From positions 40,058 through 104,057 of the forward strand of contig JAGVZM010000003.1 of the NCBI GenBank assembly GCA_018302545.1: a stretch of 64,000 bases of DNA, written 5' to 3'. Shown piece after piece: positions 3,701-47,125 of the stretch. The translations under genes and the position numbers were made by a program. Origin of the DNA: Candidatus Woesearchaeota archaeon. Its GTDB lineage: Archaea > Nanobdellota > Nanobdellia > SCGC-AAA011-G17 > GW2011-AR18. The notes below the pieces were generated by a model. That model saw only the letters and a program-made list of their open reading frames with translations. It did not search any database and had not been told where the DNA came from. Position 1 is the first letter of the stretch; every line of letters starts with the position of its first letter.

Positions 3701-3710
3701 TAAATACTTA
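3500..3710 (+). ncRNA. Candidate omega-RNA (reRNA) overlapping the tnpB 3' end and the right-end hairpin. The guide would extend into flanking DNA.
   Basis: Inferred from known TnpB/omega-RNA architecture. Right-end hairpin at 3663-3683. Confidence 0.3.
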
Positions 3711-3736
3711 AGTAGTAATTATATATTTGAAATTAT

Positions 3737-4300
3737 ATGAGTATATTTACTAAAAACAAGGTGGTTATAGTCCACGGTTGTACTTCTGATAAAAATGATT
3801 TAACTTTTAATAAACATTGGATGCCCTGGCTTAAAAAAGAATTAGAAAAATTAAATTTTAAAGTTAAAATACCTAAAATGCCAGAAACTTGGAAGCCAAA
3901 CTATAATAAATTCAAAAAAGAATTTGAAAAGAATAAAATAGATGAAGATACTATATTAATTGGACATAGTTGTGGCTGCGCTTTTATAGTTCGTTGGCTT
4001 GGAGAAACAAAACAAAAAATTAAGAAATTAATATTAATTGCCCCTTGGAAAATTTATGATAAGGATGACAAAATCAGAAAAGAATTTTATAATTATAAGA
4101 TTGACGAAAATATAAAAAAGAGAGTTAAAGAAATTATAATGTTTACTTCTAATAATGAGGAAGAAGATGGCAAAAAAAGCCTAAAGATCTTTCAAAAAGA
4201 GTTAGGCGGTAAAATTATAGAACTAAAAAATAAAGGGCACTATGCATTTGAAGATATGGGTTCAGAGGAATTTCCAGAATTATTAAAAGAGATTATATAA
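3737..4300 (+). CDS. alpha/beta-hydrolase, YdeN/RBBP9-like serine esterase
   Basis: GHSCG nucleophile elbow (GxSxG), about 187 aa. Confidence 0.5.
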   Translation: MSIFTKNKVVIVHGCTSDKNDLTFNKHWMPWLKKELEKLNFKVKIPKMPETWKPNYNKFKKEFEKNKIDEDTILIGHSCGCAFIVRWLGETKQKIKKLILIAPWKIYDKDDKIRKEFYNYKIDENIKKRVKEIIMFTSNNEEEDGKKSLKIFQKELGGKIIELKNKGHYAFEDMGSEEFPELLKEII

Positions 4301-11595: not shown

Positions 11596-11681
11596 AGCCT
11601 CTGACGGGATTTGAACCCGCGATCTCCGCCTATTTAGACTATTTTACCAAGGCGATGCTCTACCAACTAAGCCACAGAGGC
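11596..11681 (-). tRNA. tRNA-Thr(GGU) with 13-nt intron at position 37/38. No encoded CCA.
   Basis: Manual fold gives acceptor GCCUCUG/CAGAGGC, D-arm with G18G19, anticodon stem UCGCC/GGCGG, loop UUGGUA|A, T-arm GCGGG-UUCAAAU-CCCGU and discriminator U. Confidence 0.85.
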
Positions 11682-11702: not shown

Positions 11703-12656
11703 TTATCTAAATAGTTTTGCATATCCTGCAGCAATCCTATTTTCCAACCCTAAATTTTTTGGGGAGAAACTATGAGGCAACCATTCATTAGTATCTGTTT
11801 TAAAAGTTTGTATAGATCCATCATTTCCAACATTAATAATATAAACAGGTAAAGGTTCTCCAGATTTTTCATTCAAAGATTGTATTGCTTCAGCAAATTC
11901 TAAAGCATGTTGTCTATCTTTATACATTACATTAGGAATACTCCCACTAGAAACAACAACTATCTCTTTTACATATCTTCTACTAGAATCATTACTCCCA
12001 TCCCTAAAATTACAGATAGCAGCAGAAATTGGTAGTTCTGGATGATAAGCAACATCTCCTCTAAAACTTCCTCTAAAAAGATTACCATTTTCACATACAA
12101 TAACTGCCCCATAGATTTTAGGACTAGATTCTGTTAAATAAATATCATAAGCACTTTGCTCAGCAAAGATAGCTTGTTTTATAGCATCAAGTCTTGATTC
12201 TTCTCCAATTACTTCTGTAAAATTAGATTTAAAATAGGCATTACCAGGAACAAGTACAGCAGTACCACCCTCTCTTGGAGCATTAATAATTACTAAATTA
12301 GCTAAATCAGTATATTGTTTTATAGCATCTCTACAATTACCGCAAGGATTTGGAATTTCATTACCGCCTAATCCTACAAATGCAATTATTTGAATAGAAT
12401 CTTCACTTCCGAAATTTTCCAATGCAGCAGCAATAACTGCTTCTTCGCCATGAGTCATTCCACTAGATATTCCTATCTCATGATTAGAACCTGCAACTAT
12501 ATTTCCATTTTTTGTGACTGCTCCTGTATTTACATGATATCCTGATTGAATAGGAGTAGCCTTAGATGTTAAAGCAGCCTCTAATGCTAGTAGCCATTTT
12601 GGATCTATATCCATTTTATCTTTATTTAAACCATTTATAAAATTCCATTTTGACAT
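11703..12656 (-). CDS. cdd: Cytidine deaminase, dimeric E. coli Cdd-like type (catalytic N-domain plus degenerate C-domain)
   Basis: HGEE and PCGNCRD zinc motifs in the first domain. The second domain lacks PCxxC. About 317 aa, GC-richer. Confidence 0.6.
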   Translation of the reverse strand: MSKWNFINGLNKDKMDIDPKWLLALEAALTSKATPIQSGYHVNTGAVTKNGNIVAGSNHEIGISSGMTHGEEAVIAAALENFGSEDSIQIIAFVGLGGNEIPNPCGNCRDAIKQYTDLANLVIINAPREGGTAVLVPGNAYFKSNFTEVIGEESRLDAIKQAIFAEQSAYDIYLTESSPKIYGAVIVCENGNLFRGSFRGDVAYHPELPISAAICNFRDGSNDSSRRYVKEIVVVSSGSIPNVMYKDRQHALEFAEAIQSLNEKSGEPLPVYIINVGNDGSIQTFKTDTNEWLPHSFSPKNLGLENRIAAGYAKLFR

Positions 12657-12737: not shown

Positions 12738-14159
12738 TTAACCAGCAATCATATATAATCTCTCTCTATATTCAGCGCCTTTACCATCTCTATTAATTTT
12801 ATTTCTTAACTTCCTTAAAGCTTTATAATAATTTTGTTCTACTGCTTGACGGCTTATACCCCATGAACTAGCTATATCAACAAAACTTTCTTTTTTTCCA
12901 GAAAAACCAATTTTTCTCAAAAGTGCATCCCTTTGTCTTTTAGTTAGTTTAGATTCACCCATTAATAATTGAAGATCTGCTCTCAAAGCAAATCTTTCCT
13001 GTCTTAAAAATGATTCTTCTAAATCTACTGAGAATTTCTCATCTTCTAATAATTCAGAGTAGTCCTCTCCATCTTCATTAGACTGAGCATGTATACTGCT
13101 TGTTTTTGGCATCTCTAATAAAACAGTTTCTATTATTTTACATTCTTTAGCAATAACCTCTGATAATGAACCTTCAAAACCATTAAGGTTAGATCCACTT
13201 TCTTTTAGTTTACCAATTAAACCTTCAAAAGTATCACTTTTTTTCCTATCTCTTTTTAATTTTTTAGCTATTTGATGTTCTAAAGATCTTATTGCAACTT
13301 CTTGTTCAGAAGGATCCCTACGTAATTCTTCACTCAATTCTTTTTTAACTCTTTTAATCTTATTATATTTTATACTCCTATCATTAGGTACTCTTATAGT
13401 CCCACTTTGATCTTTTGATCCCCGTATCATATTCCCTCTAATCCTATGCTCTGCATAAGTAAGAAATCTTAAACCAGACCTATGATCATAGAGTTCTACA
13501 GCTCTTTCTAATCCTAAATTTCCTTCTTGAATAGCATCTAAAAGAGATAAGCCCCTTCTTCGTCTTCCATGAGCGAGAGGCACAACTAGATGTAGATTAC
13601 CTTCTATCAACTTACTCTTTATCCCCCTATACATATAAAGATTTTCTTCAATTCCATCTTTGACACTTTTAAACTCTGAATAATCTCCATCCTGAATAAC
13701 ACTTCTAAGATCTGAAGCTGCTTTTCTAATCACAATTGGAGGAATCTCATTAAAGAATCCTCTATATACTTCTTCAGATTTTTCATCACCAATTAGAGCT
13801 TCCATTAATCTTCTATAAGGATGTTTTTCAGGCAAGGAACCAAAACCATCACTTTCAAAATTTTTAATTTGTTCTTTAGAAAATAAACGCGTTTTTGAAG
13901 TTCCCCTATAACTTAAATAGTGTGGAACTAACAAGTACATTCCTGTTCTTCTTGAATAAACTCCTGTTGCTGAATAAGGGAATACTTGTAATTCTGTTGT
14001 AACAAGATAAGAAGCTAAATTATCATGAACAGCTGTTAACTCACCAACAATTCTTCTTTCATCACACTCATCGATCTTAGGTGTTTTAGCAATATTCCTT
14101 AAATATATTGTTTCTGCACTAAGTCCATTATCTGTATTATTTTTATTTTGTTTTTTCAT
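12738..14159 (-). CDS. RNA polymerase sigma-70 family factor (regions 1.2, 2, 3 and 4 all present)
   Basis: Region 2 GLSLLDAIQEGNLGLERAVELYDHRSGLRFLTYAEHRIRGNMIRGSKDQSGTIRVP versus the RpoD consensus [56 protein letters not shown]. Region 4 HTH LTKRQRDALL...ISRQAVEQ. Confidence 0.8.
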   Translation of the reverse strand: MKKQNKNNTDNGLSAETIYLRNIAKTPKIDECDERRIVGELTAVHDNLASYLVTTELQVFPYSATGVYSRRTGMYLLVPHYLSYRGTSKTRLFSKEQIKNFESDGFGSLPEKHPYRRLMEALIGDEKSEEVYRGFFNEIPPIVIRKAASDLRSVIQDGDYSEFKSVKDGIEENLYMYRGIKSKLIEGNLHLVVPLAHGRRRRGLSLLDAIQEGNLGLERAVELYDHRSGLRFLTYAEHRIRGNMIRGSKDQSGTIRVPNDRSIKYNKIKRVKKELSEELRRDPSEQEVAIRSLEHQIAKKLKRDRKKSDTFEGLIGKLKESGSNLNGFEGSLSEVIAKECKIIETVLLEMPKTSSIHAQSNEDGEDYSELLEDEKFSVDLEESFLRQERFALRADLQLLMGESKLTKRQRDALLRKIGFSGKKESFVDIASSWGISRQAVEQNYYKALRKLRNKINRDGKGAEYRERLYMIAG

Positions 14160-14522: not shown

Positions 14523-14966
14523 ATGATAACTGAAGTTACAGCAGATATATTAGAACTTAAAGTAAATGCTATAGCTCATGGTTGTAATACTCAAGGGATT
14601 ATGAATGCAGGTTTGGCTAAGGTCTTAAAAGAACGTTTTCCAATAATGTATAAAGAATATAAAGCCTATTGTGAAACAGAAATGTTTAATCCAGGGGATA
14701 TACATTTTTATAGAAACCCAAAAGGACCAAATATTATAAATATAGCAACACAAATTGAACTAGAGAAGGGTGCAAGATTAGATTATATTGAAGAAGGCTT
14801 AAAAAAAATTGAAGATTCTTATTCAAGATGGGGAATAAATTCATTAGCAGTACCAAGAATTGGTTGCGGTCTTGGAGGTCTAGCTTGGAGAGATGTTAGA
14901 AGAGTTATATACTCTATTTTTGGTTCTTCTAATTTAGATGTAAGGGTTGTAACAAAGCCACATTAA
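14523..14966 (+). CDS. Macro-domain protein (ADP-ribose binding/processing)
   Basis: VNAIAHGCNTQGIMNAGLAKVL resembles the macro-domain N-terminal motif. About 147 aa. Confidence 0.55.
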   Translation: MITEVTADILELKVNAIAHGCNTQGIMNAGLAKVLKERFPIMYKEYKAYCETEMFNPGDIHFYRNPKGPNIINIATQIELEKGARLDYIEEGLKKIEDSYSRWGINSLAVPRIGCGLGGLAWRDVRRVIYSIFGSSNLDVRVVTKPH

Positions 14967-15567: not shown

Positions 15568-16038
15568 TCAGTGGGTTCCACTACTTCCAAAACCATCAGA
15601 CCTATTAGTAGAATCTAGATCTTGAACATAGTGAACTTGAACAGTTTCATATTTTTGAATTATAATCTGAGCAATTCTTTCATTTTTAGTTAGATCATAA
15701 GACAAGATTCCATGATTAACAACTATAACACTAATTTCCTCCCTATAGTTTGAATCAATAACTCCTCCCAGAGTATGAATTTCATGTTTAAATGCAAGGC
15801 CACTTCTATCTCTTATGTTGCCCCAATAACCTTGTGGGATTGCCATCTTAATCCCTGTTTTTATTAAAATCCTCTCTCCAGGTTTTAATTGATATTTATC
15901 TTGTTCAATCTCTTTTTTACTAGAATCTAAATCAACAATCCATCTTCCAGAAGCTCTTAAATCTAAACCGCAATCTCCTTGTCTAGAATAACAAATATCA
16001 TCCAAACCTTCAACAAGTTTAATTATCTTTAATTCCAT
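15568..16038 (-). CDS. dut: dUTP diphosphatase (trimeric dUTPase)
   Basis: Conserved dUTPase motifs GLDL, IDSNYREE and C-terminal RSDGFGSSG. Confidence 0.8.
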   Translation of the reverse strand: MELKIIKLVEGLDDICYSRQGDCGLDLRASGRWIVDLDSSKKEIEQDKYQLKPGERILIKTGIKMAIPQGYWGNIRDRSGLAFKHEIHTLGGVIDSNYREEISVIVVNHGILSYDLTKNERIAQIIIQKYETVQVHYVQDLDSTNRSDGFGSSGTH

Positions 16039-16085: not shown

Positions 16086-18674
16086 TCATTTTAACAAATC
16101 TACATCATGATGTCTGCTTTCTTTCATTCCAGCACCAGTAATCCTAATAAACTCTGCATTTTTCCATAACTCATTAATACTCTTAGATCCACAATAACTC
16201 ATCCCACTTTTCAATCCACCAATTAATTGGTAAATAACTTCTGTAACTTTCCCTCTATAAGGAATAGTCCCCTCAACGCCTTCAGGAACAACATCACTTA
16301 TGTCTGCATCATCTTTACCACTTTCTCTTTCTTTCTTACTTTTATTTGCACCAAAACCAGCCATTCCCCTATAAATTTTATATTTCCTTCCTTCCTTTAT
16401 TATTGTTTGTCCAGGACTTTCATCAGTTCCTGCTAACATATTTCCTAACATAACTGTAGAAGCTCCAGCTGCTAAAGCCTTAACAATATCTCCAGATTGT
16501 TTAATTCCACCATCAGCAATAACTGTAATTCCCACTTCATTCGCAACTTTAGCAGAATCCATAACAGCCGTTAATTGAGGCACACCACAACCAGTCTGAA
16601 TTCTAGTTATACAAATTGAATTATGAACTATTGCATTATTTGCTATAAAACTATGAGTAGGACAATCTATTTCCAAATCATAAACTTTAACACATAAATC
16701 TGTTTTTTCATTTTTTAATAATTTTACAACTTGATAATCTTCAGATAATCTTTTTTCTCCTGTATTTATTATTTCAGAAATATAACTTTGGCTAAAATTA
16801 TCCAAATTAGCATTTTTCAAATTACCTTTACTAATTTTCTTTTTTTGATTATTTGGAAATACACCTTTTAATAAATAGTGAACAATATTAAATAATTCTA
16901 TTAATTTTATTGAAGTATTTGAAAATCTTATTCTTCCCCTTTCTTCTATATTTCCATCTGTATCAATTAAACCATCTAAAATACCTTGCAAATATTCTCT
17001 ATTATTAATTAAATATTTTTGTGGTAATTCTTTATTTTTCTTTTTTCCAAAAGATTGTAAAAAATCTGAAAACGGTTTATAATATAAAATAACTTGAATT
17101 ATATTCTCTTTATATGTTACTTTACATTCTTTATTAAAGATATTTATTATAAATTTCATTAATTTATTAACTTTATCAATTTCATGCTTCCCAAAATACC
17201 ATCTAACAGAACCAACACGAGAATTTTTCTTTGAAATGCCGCTATGTGAAGACCCATCACCTAAAAATGTTCCAAAAATATAACCTAATTCATAACAAGG
17301 TTCAAGACTTACATCATTTAGATATTTATATCGAATTATCCAATTACCCCCAACTCTTTTTTTCAAATTAATTTTAAAATATTGTTCTAGTTCAAACTTT
17401 ATTTCTCTAGGAATTAATAAAACATCTTGTCTAAAATCTTTTACTTCTTTCCACTTGTATTTTGAAGCTTTAGGAATTGTTTTGCTTTGTTTTTGTAATA
17501 ATCTTACATAACCCCTACTTTGTATAGTTTCAATTGAAGAAGTATTCAAGTCTCCTACCCAATACCTATGTTCTGGAGTTACATGGGTTTCTTCATAAAA
17601 TATAGAGTTTCTAATTTTTCTAACTTCTTTAATTCCAGTACAAAATGCTTTTTTAACATTCACAGGTTCTCCATTCTTATTTATTACTCTTTCACCAGCC
17701 TTAATTTCTTCAATATTTTTATAAATTCCATTAGACATTAATACCCTAGTTCCTGCAGCAAAACAGCCCCCTCCAACTCCGACCTTAATACAATCTGCTC
17801 CCGCATTAATTAAATCTAAAGTTCCTTCAGCTGTAGCAACATTTCCAGCAATTATTTGAACATCTCCAAATCTATCTTTAATATTTTTTATAGTAGAAAG
17901 AGTCATATCATGATGTCCATGCGCAACATCTATACAAAGAACATCACATCCAACCTTAATTAAAGCTTCAGTTCTATCCAAATAATCTCCTTTAACCCCA
18001 ACAGCAGCACCAACTAATAATCTCCCTTTCTTATCTTTAGTAGCCAGAGGATGTTTCTCTCTATTAGTTATATCCTTAGCAGTAATTAACCCTTTTAAAA
18101 TTCCTTTACTATCAATTAAAGGAAGTTTCTCAATTTTATTTTGCTTTAATATTTCTTTTGCATTTTCAATATCTTTATTTATGTCACCAATAATTGATTT
18201 TTCTTTTGGAGTCATCAAATCTTTAATTTGTTTTAATAAATTGTCCTCAAACATCATATCTGTGTTTGTTAAAATTCCCACATATCTTCCAACATTATCT
18301 GTAATGGGAATTCCTGTAATATTTTTATCCTGCATTAAAATTTTAGCATCTTTTAAATTATGTTCTGGAGTTAAAGTATAAGGATTCTCTATTACAATTG
18401 CTTCTGATCTTTTAACTTTTAAAATTTCTTTAACTTGGTCGTCTATAGTTAAAAATCTATGAATAATTCCAAGACCCCCTTGTCTTGCCATTTCAATTGC
18501 CATTGCACTTTCCGTAACAGTATCCATATTGGCGCTTATTATAGGCATATTTAGTTTAATTTTATTAGTTAAAAAAGAACTTATATCAACATTTTTTCTA
18601 GAATATATATTGGAAAGTTTAGGAACTAATAAAACATCATCATAAGCTAATGCCTCTCTTATTTCATTATTCAT
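16086..18674 (-). CDS. guaB: Inosine-5'-monophosphate dehydrogenase containing an in-frame intein
   Basis: N-extein carries IMPDH and CBS domains. Catalytic loop VGVGGG|SICITR is split by 382 aa starting with Cys and ending HN. The intein holds two LAGLIDADG blocks. Confidence 0.9.
16620..17765 (-). other. Intein (382 aa) with LAGLIDADG homing-endonuclease domain, inserted at the IMPDH catalytic-Cys loop
   Basis: N-terminal Cys1 (CFAAGTRV). C-terminal ...IVHN with +1 Ser. Endonuclease blocks [13 protein letters not shown] and [14 protein letters not shown]. Confidence 0.8.
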
Positions 18675-18735: not shown

Positions 18736-21087
18736 TTAGAAACTACCTAAATCTAATTGCTTATTACCTTTTAATACATCCTCAAAATTAGTATTGAAAA
18801 AAACAAGAATTGAATCAGCAATAGGTTGTATCTGTCTTTTAATATAATGTTCATAATCGATTTTACTTTTCATCTTCTCTACAGGTTCTGGACCGTCTTC
18901 TGTGATTACATATTTTATTTTATTTGATTCTATTATCCCCCCTCTTTCTAAAAGTTTTCTAGCAGACAAAATGTGGGGTGGTGTAATCTTAGTGTATTCT
19001 TTTAAATCTTTCCTAATACTTTTAGTATAAACTAACATCTCATCATATTTTCCTTTTCTAACATCATCTACAAACTTCTTTGTAAATTTAACAACATCTT
19101 TATTATGAAAGACTCTATCTAATAATTCTTCTTGATATTTTTTAGCTAATTCAGTCCAATCAGATCTCACGGTTTCAAGTCCAGTAAATTCAATTTCCTC
19201 TTTTCCATTCTTAATGACTAAACCCGCATATCTCTTTTTAGCTCCCTCTTCCCTACCTCTAAGTTTAGGCATTAAACATTTAATGAAACATTTTTCATAC
19301 CTCAATTCTAAATAACTTTGACGTTTATACTCTTCTTTAATTAGATGATCATAAAATTCATTTATGTGTTTTTGAATCTTCTTTCCAATCTTATCTGCTT
19401 CTTCTAAATTTTTTGCTTTAGAAACTACAAATGAGCTGTCTGTGTCTTGATAAATTACTTCATAACCTAATTTTTCAATTTCTTTAGAAGTTAATTGAAT
19501 AATATATTGACCAAAATGAGTGATTGCATTTGCAACATTCATATCAAAAAATCTACAACTAGGAGAAGCTAAAACTCCAAAGAAAGAATTACTCAAAATC
19601 TTAATTGCATATCTTGTTAATTCATCTTTTTCTTTTCTTGCTTTTTCCCTTTCATGATATAATTCCGTTAAGATTATTGGCATTATTCCATCTTCATTTC
19701 TAAAGCAAGCTCCATTGGGTGCTTTGATTAAATTTTTACCTTTACAATATTCAACATAAGAGTAAGGATCAATATTAAAACTTCTCATCATACTAGGATA
19801 CAGACTTTTAAAATCTAAAATTAGAATATAATCGTAAATTCCAGGTTTACTCTCCTTAACATATCCCCCTTTAATTGGTTCCTCCTTCAAAGCGAATTTA
19901 GCACTAGGACAAACAATCTTTCTCTTTGTAGTCTCTCTTATATACAAAGAGTCAAGCGAAGCAATTGAAGCATTTACTCTATCTAAGGGCATACCTGTTA
20001 ATAAACTTCTTAATATAGTTAATTCAAATACTCCGCTCTTTTCTAAAATTCTTAATACTAAATCTGCATCTTTAAGATTATATGCAGCTAATTTTTTCTT
20101 ATTATTTCTCCATAGATCATCAATTTCTAAGTATTTATCATGTCCTGTAGTTTTGATTAATTTACCATCCCCTAAAATCTCTCCAGCTACAGTATCAAGT
20201 TTGAAATCTTTAGGTTTAATAAAAGAAACCTTCAATAAATTCAAACCATCTAAAACTTGCCTTCCAATAACATCAACTTTACTATCTTTAAAAAAATCAC
20301 TCTCAATTCTCAACTTAACTTTAGATCTCTCTCTGCCAAAATCAAAAGGAACTTTTAATTTATCACATTTTCCCTTTAAATAATCTAAATCAAAATCAAT
20401 AACATTCCAACCAGTAATAACATCAGGATCTAACTCTATAATATCATTAATAAAATTCTCAAGAACATTAGTTTCACCATTGCAAGAAATAGCACCTTCA
20501 ATTTTATCTTTAGAATTAATGAAAACTTTATTTACATTTCCACAAACATAACCTATGCAATATAATTCATCATTTTTAGGATCACCTTTACTACTTTCTA
20601 TATCAAAACTTAAAATCTTAATATTCTTCGGTTTATAATTATGAATTCCTATTATATCTGGCTCCTTATAAATTCTATCAACTCTTTCACCTATTTCATA
20701 TTCCCCCTCTATCTCTAAACTTCCTTGAATATCATGATCCATCATAAACCTATAAGAAAATCTTATATCTGCTTCATAACTTTCAATTCCTACTTCTGAA
20801 AACTGTTTTTTTAATTTAGGAACTTCTGCAGGAATATCCAAAAAAATCTTAATTACTTTATTGCCATTAAAATTTTGAAAATCGTCATCACTTACTTCAA
20901 AATCAGTTATACCCTTAGCTAATTTTAAATCTTGTTTTTTAATATAAAAATAAGGTTTATAAGAATTAACTGTTAGAAAACTTTCCCCATTCTCTAATCT
21001 TCCATATAAACAAACAAAAGATTTTCCACCAATTACTTTATATGTGGGATAAATAACAAAACCTTTCATAATGATAAAATGTATCAA
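18736..21087 (-). CDS. polB: Family B DNA polymerase
   Basis: Exo I FDIES. Pol motif A DFKSLYPSMM. Motif B KILSNSFFG. Motif C YQDTDS. Confidence 0.9.
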   Translation of the reverse strand: MIHFIIMKGFVIYPTYKVIGGKSFVCLYGRLENGESFLTVNSYKPYFYIKKQDLKLAKGITDFEVSDDDFQNFNGNKVIKIFLDIPAEVPKLKKQFSEVGIESYEADIRFSYRFMMDHDIQGSLEIEGEYEIGERVDRIYKEPDIIGIHNYKPKNIKILSFDIESSKGDPKNDELYCIGYVCGNVNKVFINSKDKIEGAISCNGETNVLENFINDIIELDPDVITGWNVIDFDLDYLKGKCDKLKVPFDFGRERSKVKLRIESDFFKDSKVDVIGRQVLDGLNLLKVSFIKPKDFKLDTVAGEILGDGKLIKTTGHDKYLEIDDLWRNNKKKLAAYNLKDADLVLRILEKSGVFELTILRSLLTGMPLDRVNASIASLDSLYIRETTKRKIVCPSAKFALKEEPIKGGYVKESKPGIYDYILILDFKSLYPSMMRSFNIDPYSYVEYCKGKNLIKAPNGACFRNEDGIMPIILTELYHEREKARKEKDELTRYAIKILSNSFFGVLASPSCRFFDMNVANAITHFGQYIIQLTSKEIEKLGYEVIYQDTDSSFVVSKAKNLEEADKIGKKIQKHINEFYDHLIKEEYKRQSYLELRYEKCFIKCLMPKLRGREEGAKKRYAGLVIKNGKEEIEFTGLETVRSDWTELAKKYQEELLDRVFHNKDVVKFTKKFVDDVRKGKYDEMLVYTKSIRKDLKEYTKITPPHILSARKLLERGGIIESNKIKYVITEDGPEPVEKMKSKIDYEHYIKRQIQPIADSILVFFNTNFEDVLKGNKQLDLGSF

Positions 21088-21718: not shown

Positions 21719-23554
21719 CTATAAACTTTTAGGCGTAAGAGAAATTTCTTGAGAAACATCAACTTTTTCATCTCCTAAATAACCACCATAAAATTTATAC
21801 ATTGTTGTAGGATCAATATAAGCGCTATAGTTCTTTCTTTCAATTTTAAAATCTAATTTAAAACCAAAGTGCAAATGGACTCCACTCTTACCTTTAACCC
21901 TCCCAGTTCTTCCCATCTGCATAAGATCCTGTCCTAAACCAACTTGATCTAAAGGAGAAACATTAAAAGTATTAGGAACACCATGCAAATAGAATGTTTC
22001 AAATCCTAATTCAGGTTTACCATGTCTAACTTTAACATAATAACCATTAATATTATCTGAACCAGTATCTACAACAACCCCATCCATCACTGAATATATA
22101 GGATCTCCTTGAACTCCAGCTGTAGCAGGAGCAATGTCTATACCGTTATGGTGTCTTCCCCACCTTACCCCAAAATAAGAATTTATCTCAGTATTGACAG
22201 TAGGCCAACCTACACCTTGTTTTAAAGTCAAATAATAAGCCATTACTCTCCTTACATAATCATTTGTTTGATAAGTAAGATGATGTAAAACATCCCAGAT
22301 ATCATTGCTTCCAGCTTTTAGTTTTGCTTCTTTAACTTTTTTAGGACCAGCATTGTAATTTGCTAAAATCTCTACTAAAGAATCTTCTCCTGATGATGGG
22401 GAGTATCTACTATAAAGAGCAATACTATACACCGCTGCTCTTATATTTTCAGATGGATCATTTTTTACTTTATCCCAAGAAAATTCTTCACCACTCAAAA
22501 CCCCGCTTCTAATCAACCTATTTAATTCATCAACATTAATTCTTGTTTGTTGAGTAAGTCCATAAGCATCTTCTCCAGATTTTTTTACTTTTCTTTTCTT
22601 CCCATCAAAGTGTTTGAAATCTCCAGATTCAACAATTGCAATGGCTCTTCCAAAATCAGGATCAACCTCAAAATTATTTCTTTGATTAAATCTTTCTGCA
22701 TGATAGGCAAATGCATCCCAATAAGTTAATTGACCTTGTTCAAAAACATAACCTTCTCTACCTCTCCTTATTTCTTCTTTTCTTTTAATCTCCATTCTAG
22801 GAAGTTCAGGAATTTTTATTCTTTCAACCAAGCCGCTAATATCAGGAGTAGTTAATCCTGGTCTTTCAAGTGCAGCATGTGCAGCGCTAACTGAAAATAA
22901 AGCATATAATAAAGGGACTTTAGATGCCATCCTATTCCTTGCAGGAATCTTAGCTTTTTTTCTATTAAAATATCTTGACAAATCTCTACCAACTTTAACA
23001 CCCAATCCTGAAATTAATCCACCAACACCTAATTTAACCAAATCAAAATCATCTATAACAGTATAACCTAAATGTAAAGTTCCAGCACCAGCCACAAGAG
23101 GTAAAAGATATTTATTATTAACAAATTTATTTTCAGTCAAAAATCTCCTAGCATCAACAATTTTTTGATGCACCTTTCTTAATGCTCCTTTACCTTTAAC
23201 AACATAACTTCCTTTACTTTGATCATATAATCTATATAAATTAATACCTGTAGGAACTGCAATTCCAAATATTCCTGTTAAGCTAGCACCCCATTCTAAT
23301 ATAGAATAAGTTGTATCTCCAATAAACATTCCCATTTGAGTGCTTTCAACACTTAAAGCAAGACCTGCAGCACCAGGAATTAACCATTTCTCAACATGGG
23401 GCTTTATATCTCTTAATGTAGAGTTAAGTCTATCATCTAATTTACCAATTCCTTTTAAGAGTATATCTAATCCCATAACAATACAATTACCACAACTAAG
23501 TAGAAAATTTATAAAGATTTGTATAAGATAAAATTTGTCACTAATAAGAGACAA
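21719..23554 (-). CDS. Membrane-anchored peptidoglycan hydrolase with lytic transglycosylase (SLT) and M23 peptidase domains
   Basis: SLT motif ES...GLTQQ. M23 motifs HNGIDIA and HLHFG. N-terminal TM segments. GC-richer. Confidence 0.7.
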   Translation of the reverse strand: MSLISDKFYLIQIFINFLLSCGNCIVMGLDILLKGIGKLDDRLNSTLRDIKPHVEKWLIPGAAGLALSVESTQMGMFIGDTTYSILEWGASLTGIFGIAVPTGINLYRLYDQSKGSYVVKGKGALRKVHQKIVDARRFLTENKFVNNKYLLPLVAGAGTLHLGYTVIDDFDLVKLGVGGLISGLGVKVGRDLSRYFNRKKAKIPARNRMASKVPLLYALFSVSAAHAALERPGLTTPDISGLVERIKIPELPRMEIKRKEEIRRGREGYVFEQGQLTYWDAFAYHAERFNQRNNFEVDPDFGRAIAIVESGDFKHFDGKKRKVKKSGEDAYGLTQQTRINVDELNRLIRSGVLSGEEFSWDKVKNDPSENIRAAVYSIALYSRYSPSSGEDSLVEILANYNAGPKKVKEAKLKAGSNDIWDVLHHLTYQTNDYVRRVMAYYLTLKQGVGWPTVNTEINSYFGVRWGRHHNGIDIAPATAGVQGDPIYSVMDGVVVDTGSDNINGYYVKVRHGKPELGFETFYLHGVPNTFNVSPLDQVGLGQDLMQMGRTGRVKGKSGVHLHFGFKLDFKIERKNYSAYIDPTTMYKFYGGYLGDEKVDVSQEISLTPKSL

Positions 23555-23737: not shown

Positions 23738-24943
23738 TTATTCTAATTGATTAAATCTTCCATTATACCTATTATCCCCATAACTAGCACCATCAAATTT
23801 TAAATCCCTTAAACAAACGCTTCTGTAAAATACTTCTCTGCCTAAATCTTCAGCACCACCAACAACTTCAATTTCTCCTTCAAAAGGAGCAGGAATACTA
23901 CTCTTACCTTTAATATGTATCATTCTTTGACTCTCTGTAGATGGGTGATTCTTACAATCAACACAGATACCATACATAACTTCAACTTCATCAGCTAAAC
24001 ACATCAAAGCGCTTGTTTCACCAAACCTTTTTCTATTGTAAGTTCTAGCTAATCCAAACACAACAATATCATATCCTTCAGATAATAAATTATGTACAGG
24101 CATATAAAGACCTTTAAGAGGTTCATCTTTTAAACCGATAAATTGAGATTCATCAATAAACACAGTTTTAACATTAGGATTTCTAATTACTCTATCGTAA
24201 ACCTCTTGTCCATTTGTAACCCCTATAGAATCAAATTCAGCCCTATCATGTGTTGCACATTTTCCTGTTTCAGAATACCTATTATCAGCTGCATAATTAA
24301 AAACCATAAATTCATTTTGTCTTAATTCTTCTTCAGCAACTAAATCTCCTAAAGTGGTTGTTTTTCCAACATACATCGGACCTGTTTTTACCATTAATTT
24401 TCCATGTCTTGGCCTTCCACCTTGTTTTGAAAAATGAGTAACACACCTAGGCTCATAATCTCTATCAATTTTAATACTTCTTCCAGCAGGAAGTTCACAA
24501 AAACCATCACCACATATAGCTTTCAAAACCTTAACATCATCAGAAATAGCCATTAAATCTGCCATAGAACCATAAGGCCAACCTTCTGAATCTAAATTTA
24601 AACCATAACCTATAACATTCCTGCCACTTCTAACTAAAGAATCAACTAAATCGACTATTCCTTCCTCCTTTTTAAAATGAGAAATTCCAGAGATTAGTAT
24701 CGCTCTAGTTTCATCAGTAATCAGTTCTGCAATTCCATTAGGATGTTCTAAAACATAGGCTTCATGACCTCCAATTTTACCAGGACTTCCAACATCATCC
24801 ATGGGATGTTTAACAACTAAAAAATTACCATTATGCTTGAAACCACTTGCTCTTGCAGAATTTAGAACTCTTACAGCATGGAATGTTTTTCTGGATTTAA
24901 CCGGACCAGAAAATAAAGTAAATTTCGCTAGTTTATAGGGCAA
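23738..24943 (-). CDS. tdk: Tandem-duplicated thymidine kinase (TK1 type). The N-terminal copy has a degenerate P-loop.
   Basis: C-terminal half has GPMYVGKTT, FIDESQF and a CxxC ribbon. N-terminal half is a TK-like fold with GPVKSRKT. Confidence 0.7.
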   Translation of the reverse strand: MPYKLAKFTLFSGPVKSRKTFHAVRVLNSARASGFKHNGNFLVVKHPMDDVGSPGKIGGHEAYVLEHPNGIAELITDETRAILISGISHFKKEEGIVDLVDSLVRSGRNVIGYGLNLDSEGWPYGSMADLMAISDDVKVLKAICGDGFCELPAGRSIKIDRDYEPRCVTHFSKQGGRPRHGKLMVKTGPMYVGKTTTLGDLVAEEELRQNEFMVFNYAADNRYSETGKCATHDRAEFDSIGVTNGQEVYDRVIRNPNVKTVFIDESQFIGLKDEPLKGLYMPVHNLLSEGYDIVVFGLARTYNRKRFGETSALMCLADEVEVMYGICVDCKNHPSTESQRMIHIKGKSSIPAPFEGEIEVVGGAEDLGREVFYRSVCLRDLKFDGASYGDNRYNGRFNQLE

Positions 24944-25111: not shown

Positions 25112-26893
25112 ATGAGAAAAGTATTAGCTATTGTAGAAAAAGACAAATGTCATCCAGATAAATGTCAGCATGAATGTATGAAATATGATCCAATAAATAA
25201 AACAGGGGGAGAAGGATTCCATATTAGTGAAGAAACCAAAAAGGCATGTATAAGCGATTCTGTAGTTATGGAAATGCATAAGATTTCAGCAAAAAAATGC
25301 CCCTTTCATGCAATTCACATTGTTAATCTGCCTGAAAAATTAAAAGAAGATCCAATACACAGTTATGGTTTAAACTCATTCGAGCTTTATTCACTGCCTC
25401 ATGTAAAAGAAAAGACAGTAGTTGGAATAATTGGAAGAAATGGAATTGGAAAATCTTCAGCATTACAATTTTTAACAGGAACTATAAAACCAAATTTAGG
25501 AAATTATCAAAAGCCTCTAAAAGAAAATGAAATAATTGAGAGATATTCAAATTCTTGGGTGGGAGAATATTTCAAAAAATTACTAAATAAACAATTAAAA
25601 ATTGCTTACAAACCTCAGCGTGTGGAGTTGCTCACTTCAATTTACAAAGGATATACTGTAAAAGAATTATTAAGCAAAGTAGATGAAAGAAAAATAATTC
25701 ACACACTATTAAATGATTTAGATATCCCAACAATAGAAAATAGAAAAATAGAAGAATTATCTGGTGGAGAATTACAAAGAGTTGCGATAATTGCAACAGT
25801 AGCTAAAAAAGCTGATGTTTATTATTTTGATGAGCCCTCATCTTTTTTGGATATAACTCATAGGATAAAAGCTGCTAGATTAATAAGATCTTTAGCTGAA
25901 AATTCTTCTGTTGTAGTAGTTGAACATGACTTAGCCACATTGGATTATATATCAGATGAAATCCAAATTGTTTATGGAGAACAAGCATGTTACGGTATAT
26001 TCTCTCAATCTAAAGCAGTAAGAAGAGGTATTAATGAGTATATGGAAGGTTTTCTACCTGATGAAAACATAAAGTTCAGACCATACTCAATAAAATTTGA
26101 AGAGCGCCCCATAGATAAATTTGTCTCACAAGAATTAATTTTAGAATTTCCAGAATTAGAAAAATCATATACATCATTTAAATTAAAAACCTCTCCTGGA
26201 AAATTACACAGAGGAGAAGTATTAACAATTATGGGAGCGAATGGTTTAGGCAAATCTACATTCTTAAAACTACTTTCAGGATTAGAAATTTCAGATAAAG
26301 GAAAATTAGAAAAGGTAAGGATAAGTTATAAACCTCAATACTTAAAAAATGATATTGAGGGTAATGTAGAGGATTATCTCAAGGGAATAGCAGGTTCTGA
26401 ATTCAATTCTTCTTGGTTCAAAGCGAATATTTTAGAAAAACTGAATATACAATCAATTTTACAAAATAAAATTTCTGAACTATCTGGAGGAGAATTACAA
26501 AAAGTTCACATAGCTGCTTGTCTAGCTTGTCCAGACAAAGATATAATAACAATGGATGAGCCTTCTGCTTTTATAGATGTAGAAGATAGATTAAATGTAG
26601 CAGAGATAATTAAGGATTTTGTAATAAACAAAAACATCGCAGCAATAATTGTAGATCATGATATCCAATTTATAGATTACTTAGCAGATTCTATGTTAGT
26701 CTTTGAAGGAACTCCTGCAAAGGAGGGACATGTTTTAGGAACTTTATCTAAAAGAGAAGGAATGAACAAAGTTCTAAAAGATTTAGATATTACTTATAGA
26801 AGAGATAAACAAACTGGTAGACCGCGTATCAATAAACCAGGTTCTCAATTAGATCAAGAACAAAGACATAAAGGGGAACATTACTATATCTAA
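25112..26893 (+). CDS. abcE1: ABCE1 (RNase L inhibitor, RLI), ribosome recycling ATPase with twin ABC domains
   Basis: N-terminal CHPDKC...KCPFHAIHIVNLPE, two Walker A/B domains and signature LSGGELQ. Several Fe-S ligand cysteines are replaced. Confidence 0.85.
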   Translation: MRKVLAIVEKDKCHPDKCQHECMKYDPINKTGGEGFHISEETKKACISDSVVMEMHKISAKKCPFHAIHIVNLPEKLKEDPIHSYGLNSFELYSLPHVKEKTVVGIIGRNGIGKSSALQFLTGTIKPNLGNYQKPLKENEIIERYSNSWVGEYFKKLLNKQLKIAYKPQRVELLTSIYKGYTVKELLSKVDERKIIHTLLNDLDIPTIENRKIEELSGGELQRVAIIATVAKKADVYYFDEPSSFLDITHRIKAARLIRSLAENSSVVVVEHDLATLDYISDEIQIVYGEQACYGIFSQSKAVRRGINEYMEGFLPDENIKFRPYSIKFEERPIDKFVSQELILEFPELEKSYTSFKLKTSPGKLHRGEVLTIMGANGLGKSTFLKLLSGLEISDKGKLEKVRISYKPQYLKNDIEGNVEDYLKGIAGSEFNSSWFKANILEKLNIQSILQNKISELSGGELQKVHIAACLACPDKDIITMDEPSAFIDVEDRLNVAEIIKDFVINKNIAAIIVDHDIQFIDYLADSMLVFEGTPAKEGHVLGTLSKREGMNKVLKDLDITYRRDKQTGRPRINKPGSQLDQEQRHKGEHYYI

Positions 26894-28698
26894 TAACCAA
26901 TTTGTTTTCTTATTGCTTTTAAATGAGGCACCAATGCTTTAGTCCAACTTTCTAAAACACCTTCAACTCTTCCACCAATTAAATCATTTATATCCACAAG
27001 ATTACCTTCAACAATAGACTTATCCTTAACTCGAACTTCTCCATCTGTATAAGTAGCATAAATTAATCCAAAATGATCCTTATCTACTTCTTCATCCTCA
27101 ACATATAAAGTTCCTACTAAGCTTGGTTCTGAATATTTTTCTTCAAACGTAACATCTCCTAAAACTTTATCTCTCAAACAATTAGCAATATAATCTGGCC
27201 CATGAGATCTAGCAACATGACCTCCAACTCCAATAGAGATTTTATCAAATAATCTTTTATCTCCATAATCCTTAATGTCACTAGATCTTCTATAAATAAA
27301 CACCTTATCTGAATTAGTAAATATGAGCATATAATCAATTACTTGCAAGACCTCAGGATCGCCTTCACAATCATATCTAGAATGGAAAAATCCTTTTTCA
27401 CATGTTTTTATTATCTCCCCTCTTTGAGCATCAGAATCTATAGATTCAAAACCAAATCTACCTCTTCTATTATTCAATAAACTCTCTTTCTCTTCAACCA
27501 ATACCAATCTATCTAATTTTCCATGTTCTTTAGCAGCACTTTTATAATCAAAATTAGTAAAATGCTTTGAAACTTTTGGGCCCCTCTGTCCTTGATAACT
27601 AGAACCTATTTTAGATCCATAAACTTTATCTGCATCCACTTCACATCTAAAAACATCTAATACACTTATAGGCATGCCATGTTCTAGTGCAATAGGTTTT
27701 AATTCATCTGATCTTACTTCAAAAACCAAATCTCCTAAGAATCCAGGATCTATAAAACCTGCAAAATGTAACATCCCTTGTATTCCAGTATGGTGTGTTG
27801 CCCTAACTTCAGAGCTTAATGCTGGACCAAACCTTAAAATTTCCGCAGAACTAAATAAATAATATTTTTCAGGTTCAATAACAACTCTTCCATCTTTAGC
27901 AAAAACAGGTTCGAAATAATCTTCAGACACTGACCCATTAGACTTTGATAAGTCAACAACAAAAGGAGGTTGTCTAGCCATTAAACCAACAATCCCAGAG
28001 CTAGACTTTCCTTCAAGATTTAATCTAACAACTAATTCTCCATTATCAATCTTAGCAGGAGTTAATGTTCCTCTTTCATCAGAATAGAGAAGCATAGGAT
28101 TTCTAATATGCTCTTCTATAATCTCCTTGTCATTTAACTTAGAATCTAAACCTTGGAAAAATCTAAGTTGGTTTAAAGTTAATCCTTCTGAAGCTTTTAC
28201 ATTAAATACCATAGGTTGTACTAATAACCATAGATCAGAAACACAACTATCTTCTCTTCCAATTAACTCATCAAAACTTGCGCTGTAATCTACTAATAAC
28301 CTAGTATTCAAAAAATTTCTTCCAGTTGTACTTTTAGGAGAAGATTTTACGCGTTGTCCTTCGCTTAATTTAATTTTTTCATTTAATTTTAATAAATAAG
28401 AATACCCAACTAATAAATGATCATCATCAAGTCTTATCTTTCTCCTTTTTCTCTTCTCTAAATGGAGTAAATGTCTATAAACCGAGTCTTTGCTAGTACC
28501 TTTAAAACCAGTAGCATCTAAAACATAACCATCTCCACTTAAAGTAGGTTCAAAAGAAGCAGGTTGCACTCTTTTTTCTAAAGCAGCACAATTATTTATT
28601 TCTTGAGATCCTTTAAAATTTCCCTCAGGAACAACTAACCTTCCTTCAACAATTAAATTTCTAATATCTTGAGAATTTAAAGCATAACCTCTTGTCAT
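26890..28698 (-). CDS. dCTP deaminase/dUTPase-superfamily protein, long form with extra C-terminal domain
   Basis: N-terminal DIRNLIVEGRLVV and HFAGFIDPGFLGDLVFEV resemble dCTP deaminase motifs. 602 aa. Confidence 0.45.
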   Translation of the reverse strand: MTRGYALNSQDIRNLIVEGRLVVPEGNFKGSQEINNCAALEKRVQPASFEPTLSGDGYVLDATGFKGTSKDSVYRHLLHLEKRKRRKIRLDDDHLLVGYSYLLKLNEKIKLSEGQRVKSSPKSTTGRNFLNTRLLVDYSASFDELIGREDSCVSDLWLLVQPMVFNVKASEGLTLNQLRFFQGLDSKLNDKEIIEEHIRNPMLLYSDERGTLTPAKIDNGELVVRLNLEGKSSSGIVGLMARQPPFVVDLSKSNGSVSEDYFEPVFAKDGRVVIEPEKYYLFSSAEILRFGPALSSEVRATHHTGIQGMLHFAGFIDPGFLGDLVFEVRSDELKPIALEHGMPISVLDVFRCEVDADKVYGSKIGSSYQGQRGPKVSKHFTNFDYKSAAKEHGKLDRLVLVEEKESLLNNRRGRFGFESIDSDAQRGEIIKTCEKGFFHSRYDCEGDPEVLQVIDYMLIFTNSDKVFIYRRSSDIKDYGDKRLFDKISIGVGGHVARSHGPDYIANCLRDKVLGDVTFEEKYSEPSLVGTLYVEDEEVDKDHFGLIYATYTDGEVRVKDKSIVEGNLVDINDLIGGRVEGVLESWTKALVPHLKAIRKQIGY

Positions 28699-29367: not shown

Positions 29368-31944
29368 ATGCAAAAAGAAGAAATAAAAAGAGGAGAAGAT
29401 TCTGTTTCTACATTTGAGGAGGGTTTGCAATCTATAGAGGAGTTAGCTACAAAAGGAACTAAAGTTCAGGTTACTGAAAATCAATTAAAGGTTATGCAGA
29501 ATAAATATTTAAGAGGAGATTCTGTTGAATTATGGTTAAGGAGAATAGCAAGAAACATTGCATTGCCAAATGTTTATTATTATTCTAAAGAATTTCAAAA
29601 AGAAATATTAAAAGGAGTAAAACATAAGATTACAATTTCAAATGATGAATATAAATCTGAATCTTTGCTCTTACAATTACCTGAGTTAACCAGAAATGAA
29701 AGAACCCAAAATTTCTATAAGTTTGAAGATAATATTATTAAGTTTGCACAAAAAAATAAAGAAGCAACCAAGATATTAAGATCTAAAGAAGAACAATTTT
29801 TCAAATTTTTATCTAGTTTTGATTTTTTACCAAACTCTCCATGTTTAATGAATGCTGGAAGAGATCTTCAAGGTTTACATGCATGTTATGTAATTCCTGT
29901 AGGAGACTCACTTGAAGAAATTTATTATGCTGTAACTACTATGGCTTTAATTCATCAATCTGGTGGAGGAACAGGCTTTGCATTCTCTAGATTAAGACCA
30001 GAAGGAGATAAAGTTAGATCTACTAAAGGAGTTTCATCTGGTCCTATGTCTTTCATAAAACTCTTTGATACCTCAACAGATGTTGTTCGTCAAGGAGGAA
30101 CTAGAAGAGGTGCAAATATGGGTATTTTACATTACAAACACCCAGATATTAGAAGTTTTATAACCTCAAAATCCAAAGACAAAGGTTTCTTACAGAACTT
30201 TAATATCTCTGTAGGAATAGATGAAGAATTTATTAAAGCAGTTGAAATTGGTGGAGAAATAGACTTAATTAATCCTAGGACTAATCAAGTAGTAAAAAGA
30301 GAAAAAGCAAGAGAGTTATGGGATTTAATGGCAAAATGTGCATGGGAAACAGGAGATCCTGGTTTTGTTGTTATAGATAGAATTAATAATACAAATTCAA
30401 ACCCAACACCAAAATTAGGTCCAGTAGAATCTACTAACCCGTGTGGAGAGCAACCCCTATTACCATGGGAGCCTTGTACTTTAGGTAGTATTAATCTATC
30501 TAATCATGTAACAGAAGAAAAAGGAAAGACAATTGTAGACTATCAAAAATTAGAATACACTTCAAAATTAGCAACAGAGTTTTTAGAGAATGTTGTTGAA
30601 ATGGGCAATTATCCTCTTCCAGAAATTGAAGTAATATCTAAAGGAAATAGACGTATAGGATTAGGAGTTATGGGTTGGGCAGAAATGTTAGTCAAATTAG
30701 AAATCCCCTATGACTCAGAGGAAGCAATAACATTAGCAGAGGAAGTAATGGCATTTATAAATGCTAAAGCTCTAGAAGCTTCTCAAGAACTATCAGAGCT
30801 AAGGGGAGTATTCCCCAATTACAAAGACTCTATCTACGACAAGAAAGGAACCTATTTTAGAGGTCAAGATATAAAAGTAAGAAATTGTGCAACAATAGCT
30901 CCAACAGGCACTATAGCAATAACTGCAGGTCTACAAGGCTCCGGTATTGAACCTTTCTTTGCAATTGCTTACAAAAGATATCAAGCAGAAGCGGTAGATG
31001 CCTTAAAGTTAGGTAAAGAACCAGATTCAAAATATGTTTATTTTGAAGTCATACCTGCCTTTTTGGAAGTAGCAGAAAAACACAATTGGTTCGGAGCAGA
31101 TAAAAATACTTTGCTTAAAAAAATATCAGATAATCACTCTTCTGTAAAAGGAGTTAAAGAAATTCCAGAACATATACAAAAAGTATTTGTGTCTTCTCAT
31201 GACATTCATTGGAAAACACATATAGACCATCAAGCAGCATATCAAAGAAATGTTGATAATGCAGTTTCAAAAACGATTAACATGACTAATTCAGTAACTA
31301 TAGAGGACATACAATCAGCTTACTTATATGCATATAAGTCTGGATTAAAAGGAGTGACTGTTTATAGAGATGGATGTAAAGAAGTACAAGTATTGAATTT
31401 AGCCCAAGACAAAAAAAAACAAGAACAAAAGCAAATACAAAAACAAAAAATAGAAAAAAAAGAAATTGATTATACAAAAGGCGCATCATCTGATTACTAT
31501 GAAATTGAGACAGGTTACGGAACTTTACATGTTAATATAGTTCATGACTCAGATGGTCCTTCAAAAATATTTGCTTCCATACCTCCATTAGGTACAGAGT
31601 TAAGTAATTTGACATGTGTTTTAGGAATATTTATGACTAAAGCATTTGAAGCTGGTTATGATCCTAGAAAAGCAATCAAACACTTAAATTCTGCAAAAGG
31701 AGATAAACCCATTGGATTTGGTGCAAATAGAATTGACTCAATACCTCATGCAATTGCTGTAGCTCTAAAAAGACATTTAGAGAAAACAGGTAAAGTAGGA
31801 GATCAAGAACAAAAAAGATTAACAGAGATGGACATTGGTGTTAAACAAGAACATTGTCCAAAATGTTATTCACCAAATGTAGAATATGTATCTGGTTGTT
31901 CATCTCCAACATGTATAGATTGTGGACATTCAGAATGTAGTTAA
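29368..31944 (+). CDS. nrdJ: Class II (adenosylcobalamin-dependent) ribonucleotide reductase with C-terminal zinc ribbon
   Basis: Active-site NPCGEQPL. C-terminal CPKC...CIDCGHSEC. K/Q-rich low-complexity linker. Confidence 0.85.
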   Translation: MQKEEIKRGEDSVSTFEEGLQSIEELATKGTKVQVTENQLKVMQNKYLRGDSVELWLRRIARNIALPNVYYYSKEFQKEILKGVKHKITISNDEYKSESLLLQLPELTRNERTQNFYKFEDNIIKFAQKNKEATKILRSKEEQFFKFLSSFDFLPNSPCLMNAGRDLQGLHACYVIPVGDSLEEIYYAVTTMALIHQSGGGTGFAFSRLRPEGDKVRSTKGVSSGPMSFIKLFDTSTDVVRQGGTRRGANMGILHYKHPDIRSFITSKSKDKGFLQNFNISVGIDEEFIKAVEIGGEIDLINPRTNQVVKREKARELWDLMAKCAWETGDPGFVVIDRINNTNSNPTPKLGPVESTNPCGEQPLLPWEPCTLGSINLSNHVTEEKGKTIVDYQKLEYTSKLATEFLENVVEMGNYPLPEIEVISKGNRRIGLGVMGWAEMLVKLEIPYDSEEAITLAEEVMAFINAKALEASQELSELRGVFPNYKDSIYDKKGTYFRGQDIKVRNCATIAPTGTIAITAGLQGSGIEPFFAIAYKRYQAEAVDALKLGKEPDSKYVYFEVIPAFLEVAEKHNWFGADKNTLLKKISDNHSSVKGVKEIPEHIQKVFVSSHDIHWKTHIDHQAAYQRNVDNAVSKTINMTNSVTIEDIQSAYLYAYKSGLKGVTVYRDGCKEVQVLNLAQDKKKQEQKQIQKQKIEKKEIDYTKGASSDYYEIETGYGTLHVNIVHDSDGPSKIFASIPPLGTELSNLTCVLGIFMTKAFEAGYDPRKAIKHLNSAKGDKPIGFGANRIDSIPHAIAVALKRHLEKTGKVGDQEQKRLTEMDIGVKQEHCPKCYSPNVEYVSGCSSPTCIDCGHSECS

Positions 31945-46759: not shown

Positions 46760-47125
46760 CTATCTCAATTTACTTTTAGCTTCTATCAATATCTGTTCAC
46801 ATTCATCATTAGGGTCACATAACTCTAGTTTTCCATCTAAACCATTATCAACTACCCTGCCTTCTCTAGCAAATCTAGAAGTATCAATTTTCCTTTTGAA
46901 TAAGATTACTAAGGAATCTTCTTTTCCAAAATTGCCTTTTGGCATTTCATCAGTAAAAATTACTTCTGTTTCATTACCAAATTTATAACTTCGTGAATAG
47001 ACCTCGCCCATTGTTATTTGATATGGTGAACCATTTTCATTCACATATTTAGCAATGTCCTTAATATAATAATTATTGGTACAACCAAAGACCCCAATTA
47101 ACGCTAAAGCGAGTAGTCTATTCAT
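46760..47125 (-). CDS. Small lipoprotein-like protein
   Basis: Signal sequence with Cys. Confidence 0.4.
   Translation of the reverse strand: MNRLLALALIGVFGCTNNYYIKDIAKYVNENGSPYQITMGEVYSRSYKFGNETEVIFTDEMPKGNFGKEDSLVILFKRKIDTSRFAREGRVVDNGLDGKLELCDPNDECEQILIEAKSKLR

Follow-up and report, generated by a model that had tools for sequence, protein, structure and literature searches.

We analysed a 64,000-nucleotide window of DNA from a Candidatus Woesearchaeota archaeon (contig JAGVZM010000003.1, positions 40,058 to 104,057; coordinates below are those of the window), in which the guaB gene for IMP dehydrogenase (IMPDH) carries an in-frame insertion of 382 codons at the loop of the catalytic cysteine. 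The insertion is best explained as a canonical class-1 intein with a nested LAGLIDADG homing endonuclease, built like PI-SceI and other VMA inteins, which would splice itself out to leave a 52-kDa IMPDH and a free intein of 44.5 kDa, the latter predicted to home into guaB alleles that lack it. Judged from the sequence and a structure model, this reading is given a probability of about 0.92.

Insertion at the catalytic loop of IMP dehydrogenase

The guaB precursor is encoded on the minus strand (16086..18674; 862 aa plus stop, 96.5 kDa). Its N-extein (17766..18674, minus strand) covers IMPDH residues 1-303, with the N-half of the barrel and the CBS pair, and ends in ...KVGVGGG. The C-extein (16089..16619, minus strand) comprises 177 aa, precursor residues 686-862, and starts with SICITR, the Ser being the putative splicing nucleophile Ser+1. 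Between them lies the 382-aa intein (16620..17765, minus strand; precursor residues 304-685, Cys1 to Asn382; 44.5 kDa, pI 9.5). The boundaries read ...KVGVGGG|CFAAGTRV...NNAIVHN|SICITR..., i.e. the insert sits between Gly303 and the Ser of the loop GVGGG|SICITR. An initial annotation of this stretch, made from the letters alone, had placed a 382-aa element at 16620-17765 between exteins of 303 and 177 aa, starting with Cys and ending in His-Asn followed by Ser+1; its coordinates, lengths and arithmetic were exact and the ends read as it described, all on the minus strand.

The guaB product scored 524.7 bits against the NCBIfam model TIGR01302, above the equivalog cut-off of 481.5, which identifies it as an IMPDH. 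In the Pfam search of the precursor the IMPDH domain was found in two stretches (E 7.6e-140), together with two CBS stretches. When the insert was removed, the joined exteins (303 + 177 = 480 aa) matched the Thermotoga maritima IMPDH structure 1vrd from end to end (E 2e-157), and the alignment ran without a gap across the junction, with 'kvgvgggsicitr' over 'kvgvgpgsicttr'. The junction peptide predicted for the spliced product is VGVGGGSICITR. The proposed host, a guaB split at the catalytic-cysteine loop, was thus supported, and the comparison of the extein-only protein with an IMPDH structure, suggested as a check, came out in its favour. By established enzymology, IMPDH uses the Cys of this GSIC motif as its catalytic nucleophile; in the 1vrd alignment it corresponds to the TGT codon at 16611..16613 (minus strand), which is precursor Cys688 and would be Cys306 after splicing. 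Since this Cys is the +3 residue of the C-extein, the insertion lies two residues upstream of the active-site Cys. Insertion at the catalytic motifs of nucleotide-metabolism enzymes is the rule for inteins.

The 862-aa precursor is identical to the NCBI entry MBS3167936.1, 'IMP dehydrogenase [Candidatus Woesearchaeota archaeon]', and its 90%-identity cluster holds a second 862-aa sequence as well, present on two ENA contigs. An assembly artefact was ruled out, because the exact protein is found in NCBI on a contig of 186,493 bp and the second cluster member on the two ENA contigs. The 382 codons of the intein are free of stops. Given the base frequencies of the segment itself (24% G+C), the probability of this is about 2e-19, and each of the five remaining frames is interrupted by 16-60 stops. 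A frame that stays open against such odds indicates that selection maintains it. The G+C content of the intein (24.3%) is below that of the exteins (31.8%) and of the whole window (29.1%). We did not adopt this as a sign of recent transfer, since in AT-rich genomes the G+C content of conserved enzyme cores usually exceeds that of the remaining coding sequence.

For the splicing and endonuclease motifs, the window insert was aligned with 102 full-length relatives excised from database proteins (n = 103; all motifs on the minus strand). Block A (17727..17765) contains Cys1, found in all 103 sequences. Block B (17556..17594) has the TxxH motif as T63-P-E-H66, with Thr63 in 102 and His66 in 103 sequences. 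In block F, VYD363LEIDCPTH371SFIA (16641..16688), Asp363 occurs throughout and His371 in 97 sequences, and the penultimate His381 and terminal Asn382 of block G, NNAIVHN (16620..16640), are again without exception. Together with Ser+1, the block A Cys1, block B TxxH, block F Asp/His and block G His-Asn are on sequence those of a class-1 intein. Absence of blocks A, B, F and G had been named beforehand as an observation that would refute an intein; all four are present and conserved in the family.

The endonuclease domain spans approximately intein residues 150-305 (16851..17318), as delimited by the secondary structure of an AlphaFold2 model and by Foldseek matches to I-DmoI and to the endonuclease halves of PI-SceI, TliVMA and PI-PfuI. 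LAGLIDADG motif 1 (block C, intein 158-171, ...FLGD170G; 17253..17294) retains Asp170 in 96 and Gly171 in 100 of the 103 sequences. The conserved Lys245 of block D (17019..17048) is found in 102, and Asp270 of motif 2 (block E, intein 258-271, ...IDTD270G; 16953..16994) in 99. Motif 1 aligns with LLGLWIGDG and motif 2 with LAGLIDSDG of PI-SceI. Both LAGLIDADG blocks seen in the initial annotation are therefore there, with their acidic residues Asp170 and Asp270. Pfam recognized the insert as Hom_end_hint (E 1.5e-8, 35.4 bits against a cut-off of 32.1) and also as Intein_splicing and LAGLIDADG_3.

The AlphaFold2 model of the intein, built with an alignment of 37 sequences, reached a mean predicted local distance difference test score (pLDDT) of 95.1 and a predicted template modelling score (pTM) of 0.92. 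It shows a beta-rich splicing domain around two alpha-beta-beta-alpha-beta-beta-alpha halves, the order of two-motif LAGLIDADG proteins, and the LAGLIDADG motifs end the model helices 158-170 and 256-270. In a Foldseek search of the PDB the top match was TliVMA (7qsu; E 1.7e-17, template modelling (TM) scores 0.68/0.71), followed by PhoVMA, PI-SceI, PI-TkoII and PI-PfuI and later by I-DmoI. The matches to solved inteins span both the splicing and the endonuclease parts, which assigns a Hint fold to the predicted model. A sequence search of the PDB with the intein found PI-SceI alone, chiefly via block A; the firm match came from the fold search.

According to the proposed mechanism, guaB would be translated as the 96.5-kDa precursor, expected to be inactive because its catalytic-Cys loop is split by 382 residues. 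The Hint domain would fold, and Cys1, aided by Thr63 and His66, would attack the carbonyl of Gly303 in an N-S acyl shift. Ser+1 would then receive the N-extein through transesterification, Asn382 would cyclise with the help of His381 and free the intein, and an O-N shift would create a normal peptide bond, giving a 480-aa, 52-kDa IMPDH with its native loop. The free 44.5-kDa intein would cut intein-less guaB alleles site-specifically at the GGG|SIC-coding sequence, and recombinational repair would copy the intein into the cut allele. Such homing is proposed to underlie the patchy, cross-lineage distribution described in the next section.

Nothing speaks positively for an insertion that is never excised, i.e. 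a pseudogene or non-splicing fusion whose IMPDH activity is lost or supplied elsewhere, although splicing of the window intein is a prediction and DPANN archaea, Woesearchaeota among them, often lack biosynthetic pathways. Against this stand an 862-codon frame that is open in DNA of 29% G+C (the value of ~2e-19 applies to the intein part alone), the presence of all residues for the four splicing steps, which are invariant in the family, and exteins that are 72-74% identical to uninterrupted homologues and score above the TIGR01302 equivalog cut-off. The second 862-aa sequence on two ENA contigs further means that the intein-bearing gene was assembled independently. We consider a non-excised insertion extremely improbable and rejected it on the open frame, the invariant motifs and the conserved exteins.

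Some points do weigh against an intein that splices and homes. Both splicing and DNA cleavage are read from sequence and structure, for the window allele and its contiguous relatives alike, and the source is a metagenome-assembled genome. The window loop has GGG and ICIT and not the commoner GPG and ICTT, yet the split intein IMPDH-1, to which we return below, splices fast with GGG/SIC. Conserved endonuclease residues are, moreover, no proof of activity, as many inteins keep endonucleases that look intact and are inactive.

Presence, absence and spread at the IMPDH site

The closest homologues of the exteins (68-74% identity; the named ones from Woesearchaeota) are proteins of 471-482 aa without the intein, those at 72-74% identity being 478-480 aa long, and the DNA of these intein-less alleles is uninterrupted at GGG|SIC. 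In one of them (L004) the first 21 nt past the insertion point are identical to the window, and two others (L001, L002) have the order family-B DNA polymerase (PolB) then guaB as in the window. The empty site of the window guaB was reconstructed as GATTGTATTAAGGTCGGAGTTGGAGGGGGC|TCAATTTGTATAACTAGAATTCAGACTGGT. The nearest intein-bearing genome locus (L005) shows an extein identity of 70-73%, similar to that of the intein-less relatives, and an intein identity of 0.73. Presence and absence of the intein thus alternate among equally close relatives, which is the signature of a mobile element. A search for intein-less guaB in relatives had been recommended as a check, and close Woesearchaeota homologues provided such alleles.

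When 1.84 billion cluster representatives were searched exhaustively with phmmer, 1302 proteins matched at E<=1e-3, 139 of them at E<=1e-30. Among ten of the matches analysed with Pfam, seven had IMPDH/GMP-reductase domains, two were adenylosuccinate synthetases and one was unrelated. IMPDH matches with CBS domains are ~860-880 aa long and carry the intein at about residue 303-317; those without CBS have ~700-760 aa and the intein at about 175-200. N-terminally truncated IMPDH hosts, represented by matches of <=668 aa, were dismissed as a search artefact, because the exhaustive search and the genome loci give precursors of 700-960 aa. The 126 inteins recovered with both ends are inserted at one point, G|C...HN|S-x-C of the IMPDH loop, an agreement that is partly circular for S-x-C since the search pattern itself demanded it. 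By size, these inteins group as mini (137-158 aa), intermediate (190-348 aa) and full (350-401 aa) forms, as a cycle of invasion, decay of the endonuclease and loss would predict.

Scanning GTDB with one genome for each species confirmed at least 212 loci, spread over archaea and numerous bacterial phyla. Carriers are Woesearchaeota and further archaea (62-73% identity) as well as, among others, Planctomycetota, Chloroflexota, Actinomycetota, Deinococcota, Rhodothermota, Pseudomonadota and Myxococcota, with Roseithermus sacchariphilus, Thiocystis minor DSM 178 and Deinococcus pimensis DSM 21231 as cultured carriers. In IMG/VR, 31 loci were found on viral contigs of ~5-405 kb, giant-virus bins among them. 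Nearly all of the 111 loci that were fetched have intact frames and the same insertion point.

The identity of the inteins to that of the window was 53-54% at viral loci, where the exteins reached 40-47%, and 63-65% in some archaea with extein identities of 50-52%. In many pairs intein identity equals or exceeds extein identity, although inteins normally evolve faster than the host enzyme, and this indicates horizontal spread of the family.

Homing depends on the endonuclease, and here a different history has to be weighed: a splicing-competent intein with a dead endonuclease, fixed and vertically inherited as a passenger, which would be retained only because an essential enzyme would be lost if the deletion at the catalytic loop were imprecise. 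It concerns the homing step only. The mini and intermediate inteins at the IMPDH site (137-158 and 190-348 aa) show that endonuclease decay occurs in the family, and the similar intein and extein identities in several archaeal pairs (0.73 vs 0.70-0.73 for L005) fit co-descent within Woesearchaeota. In the window intein, however, the two catalytic Asp, Lys245 and the Gly-rich motifs are all intact and strongly conserved in the family, and the full length of 382 aa is kept. Equally close relatives lack the intein, and intein identity exceeds extein identity in comparisons with viral and some archaeal hosts. Altogether, a passenger of this kind appears unlikely, and an active endonuclease in the window intein is considered fairly probable.

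The insertion lies just two residues away from the catalytic Cys, and Cys1 and Cys+3 are near each other in the sequence. This arrangement also allows for a co-opted conditional switch: redox state or another signal would control splicing and, through it, the synthesis of GTP, e.g. via a putative Cys1-Cys+3 disulfide. Such a switch would be compatible with a splicing and homing intein. Conditional splicing is documented for other inteins, e.g. those of RadA and DnaB, and the intein family is unusually well conserved relative to the host. A switch, if true, would explain why the family is kept up, above host conservation, across archaea, many bacterial phyla and large viruses. Active-site insertion is, however, a general rule of inteins that is explained by homing-site conservation, and the patchy presence among close relatives speaks against a needed regulatory role. 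We regard the switch as very unlikely; much more likely is a weaker reading, in which the contiguous LAGLIDADG family would be a mobile element not yet described that homes actively across domains and from which IMPDH-1 arose.

Additionally, some members of the wider collection deviated from the common pattern. Two adenylosuccinate synthetases (P0327, P0329) and an RtcB protein (P0040) contain inteins that are 37-41% identical to the window intein and have the same CF..DT / IVHN|S ends; in PurA the site reads ...G|STC.... These related inteins in PurA and RtcB hosts suggest that the lineage of the window intein has jumped between host genes. Three IMPDH-domain proteins, P0264 (967 aa), P0286 (1078 aa) and P0288 (1019 aa), have a second LAGLIDADG region downstream of the catalytic-loop intein and probably represent cases of two inteins in one IMPDH, implying a second insertion site. 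In one viral locus (L107; IMG/VR 3300025117_000036, ~3001-4113) the intein lies two residues further upstream, ..FGIG|C...HN|SGGLCTTR. A locus from a Gemmatales metagenome-assembled genome (L011, ~3001-4128) reads SISTTR past the intein, with Ser for the catalytic Cys; an inactive paralogue or an error in sequencing may explain this.

The window intein is real and canonical: a textbook LAGLIDADG intein at a known site, with a large family in hundreds of public genomes, which will not surprise a specialist. MBS3167936.1 and its relatives of 860-880 aa are named plain 'IMP dehydrogenase' and deserve an intein flag in annotation. The window adds a clear-cut archaeal case of the contiguous form that carries an endonuclease, at a site that the open-access literature we searched knows only from the split IMPDH-1. 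Found in no fewer than 212 reference species and on 31 viral contigs, with mini, intermediate and full forms at one site, the family is a good data set for cross-domain homing. Protein and genome engineers may also profit from relatives of a very fast split intein and from a predicted new LAGLIDADG enzyme directed at a nearly universal coding sequence.

Genes in the neighbourhood of guaB

From about 11700 to 32000 the window holds a dense run of nucleotide-metabolism and replication genes around guaB. In this region were found a cytidine/dCMP-deaminase-like gene (11703..12656), a macro domain (14523..14966), a dUTPase (15568..16038), PolB (18736..21087, 783 aa), a thymidine kinase with an N-terminal extension of 180 aa (23738..24943), an unusually long dCTP deaminase (26890..28698, 602 aa) and a ribonucleotide reductase (RNR; 29368..31944, 858 aa). 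Bacterial-looking genes encode an M23 peptidase with an SLT lytic transglycosylase domain (21719..23554), an Hsp70 (47125..48993) and a beta-lactamase-family protein (50613..52142). The large open reading frames of the window that were checked for further inteins, including RNR, PolB, a PKD protein of 909 aa, the dCTP deaminase and the M23 + SLT protein, gave no Hint or LAGLIDADG match.

A 473-aa open reading frame at 12738..14159 (minus strand) matches Pfam Sigma70 regions 2, 3 and 4 (E 1.8e-10, 4.4e-5 and 6.5e-5) and thus encodes a bacterial-type sigma factor on a Woesearchaeota contig; beyond its own 360-aa fragment, the best matches are bacterial primary sigma factors (RpoD/SigC) with 32-34% identity. 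At 11596..11681 (minus strand) lies an 86-nt tRNA (Rfam, 60 bits) that was missed by ARAGORN and has, relative to the model, a 15-nt insertion in the anticodon-loop region. A tRNA intron of the archaeal kind probably accounts for the insertion and speaks for an archaeal origin of the contig.

Comparison with IMPDH-1 and inteins of solved structure

IMPDH was introduced as a then-new intein host by Dassa et al. 2009 on the basis of three loci from metagenomes. In these, a split intein leaves IMPDH 'fractured', and a free-standing Vsr-like endonuclease gene lies between the halves (PMC2677866). IMPDH-1, from the Global Ocean Sampling (GOS) metagenome, has become a standard tool for fast trans-splicing (used in PMC7090010, PMC11168065, PMC11271493 and PMC12350263), and its native junction is GGG/SIC (Pinto et al. 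2020, PMC7090010 supplement; PMC11271493; PMC12350263). The six junction residues are identical to those of the window gene, so the insertion site was already known. The initial annotation, which tentatively suggested that no IMPDH intein at this site is well characterised, has to be corrected in this respect, as IMPDH-1, which has this junction (PMC7090010), was described in 2009 (PMC2677866). In the same open-access literature, inteins together with guaB or IMP dehydrogenase were mentioned incidentally only, and a phrase such as 'IMPDH intein' or 'GuaB intein' was not found for the contiguous form, which is no proof that it is undescribed. IMPDH is likewise absent from the main text of the Novikova 2016 census of inteins.

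IMPDH-1 and the window intein share the host enzyme, the six junction residues GGG/SIC, Cys1, the terminal His-Asn and Ser+1. They differ in that IMPDH-1 is split over two genes, has 141 aa in total and lacks a LAGLIDADG domain, whereas the window intein is contiguous and contains one. BLASTP matches between the two were confined to block A (16/32) and blocks F/G (9/23). With hhalign, the N-terminal splicing region of IMPDH-1 aligned to the family profile at 91.6% probability (E 8e-7, 30% identity over 117 columns including TxxH), in a comparison limited to IMPDH-1 and this family. The likeness stays within reach of general intein homology, and a common descent beyond that is not established by these alignments.

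Among the solved structures, I-DmoI (2vs7, 1b24), a single chain with two motifs, fits the endonuclease half alone (TM 0.63-0.72 on the target); unlike the window intein it is intron-encoded, free-standing and without a Hint domain. PI-PfuI and PI-TkoII (1dq3, 2cw7) are likewise archaeal LAGLIDADG inteins at catalytic motifs and match the model at E 4e-11 to 2e-12, but they reside in other hosts (RNR and DNA polymerase), have extra domains and a length of 454-537 aa, and are 11-12% identical. Closest in structure are PI-SceI of yeast VMA1, TliVMA and PhoVMA (1vde, 7qsu, 7qss, 7qst), with E values from 1.7e-17 to 3e-13 and TM scores as high as 0.71. These differ from the window intein in their host, the V-ATPase subunit A, and their target site, and the identity is 13-16%; the Hint domain with a nested two-motif LAGLIDADG endonuclease is common to all of them. 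PI-SceI is also the closest solved protein by sequence, with block A ('CFAKGTNVLMADG') and both LAGLIDADG motifs aligned to the window intein.

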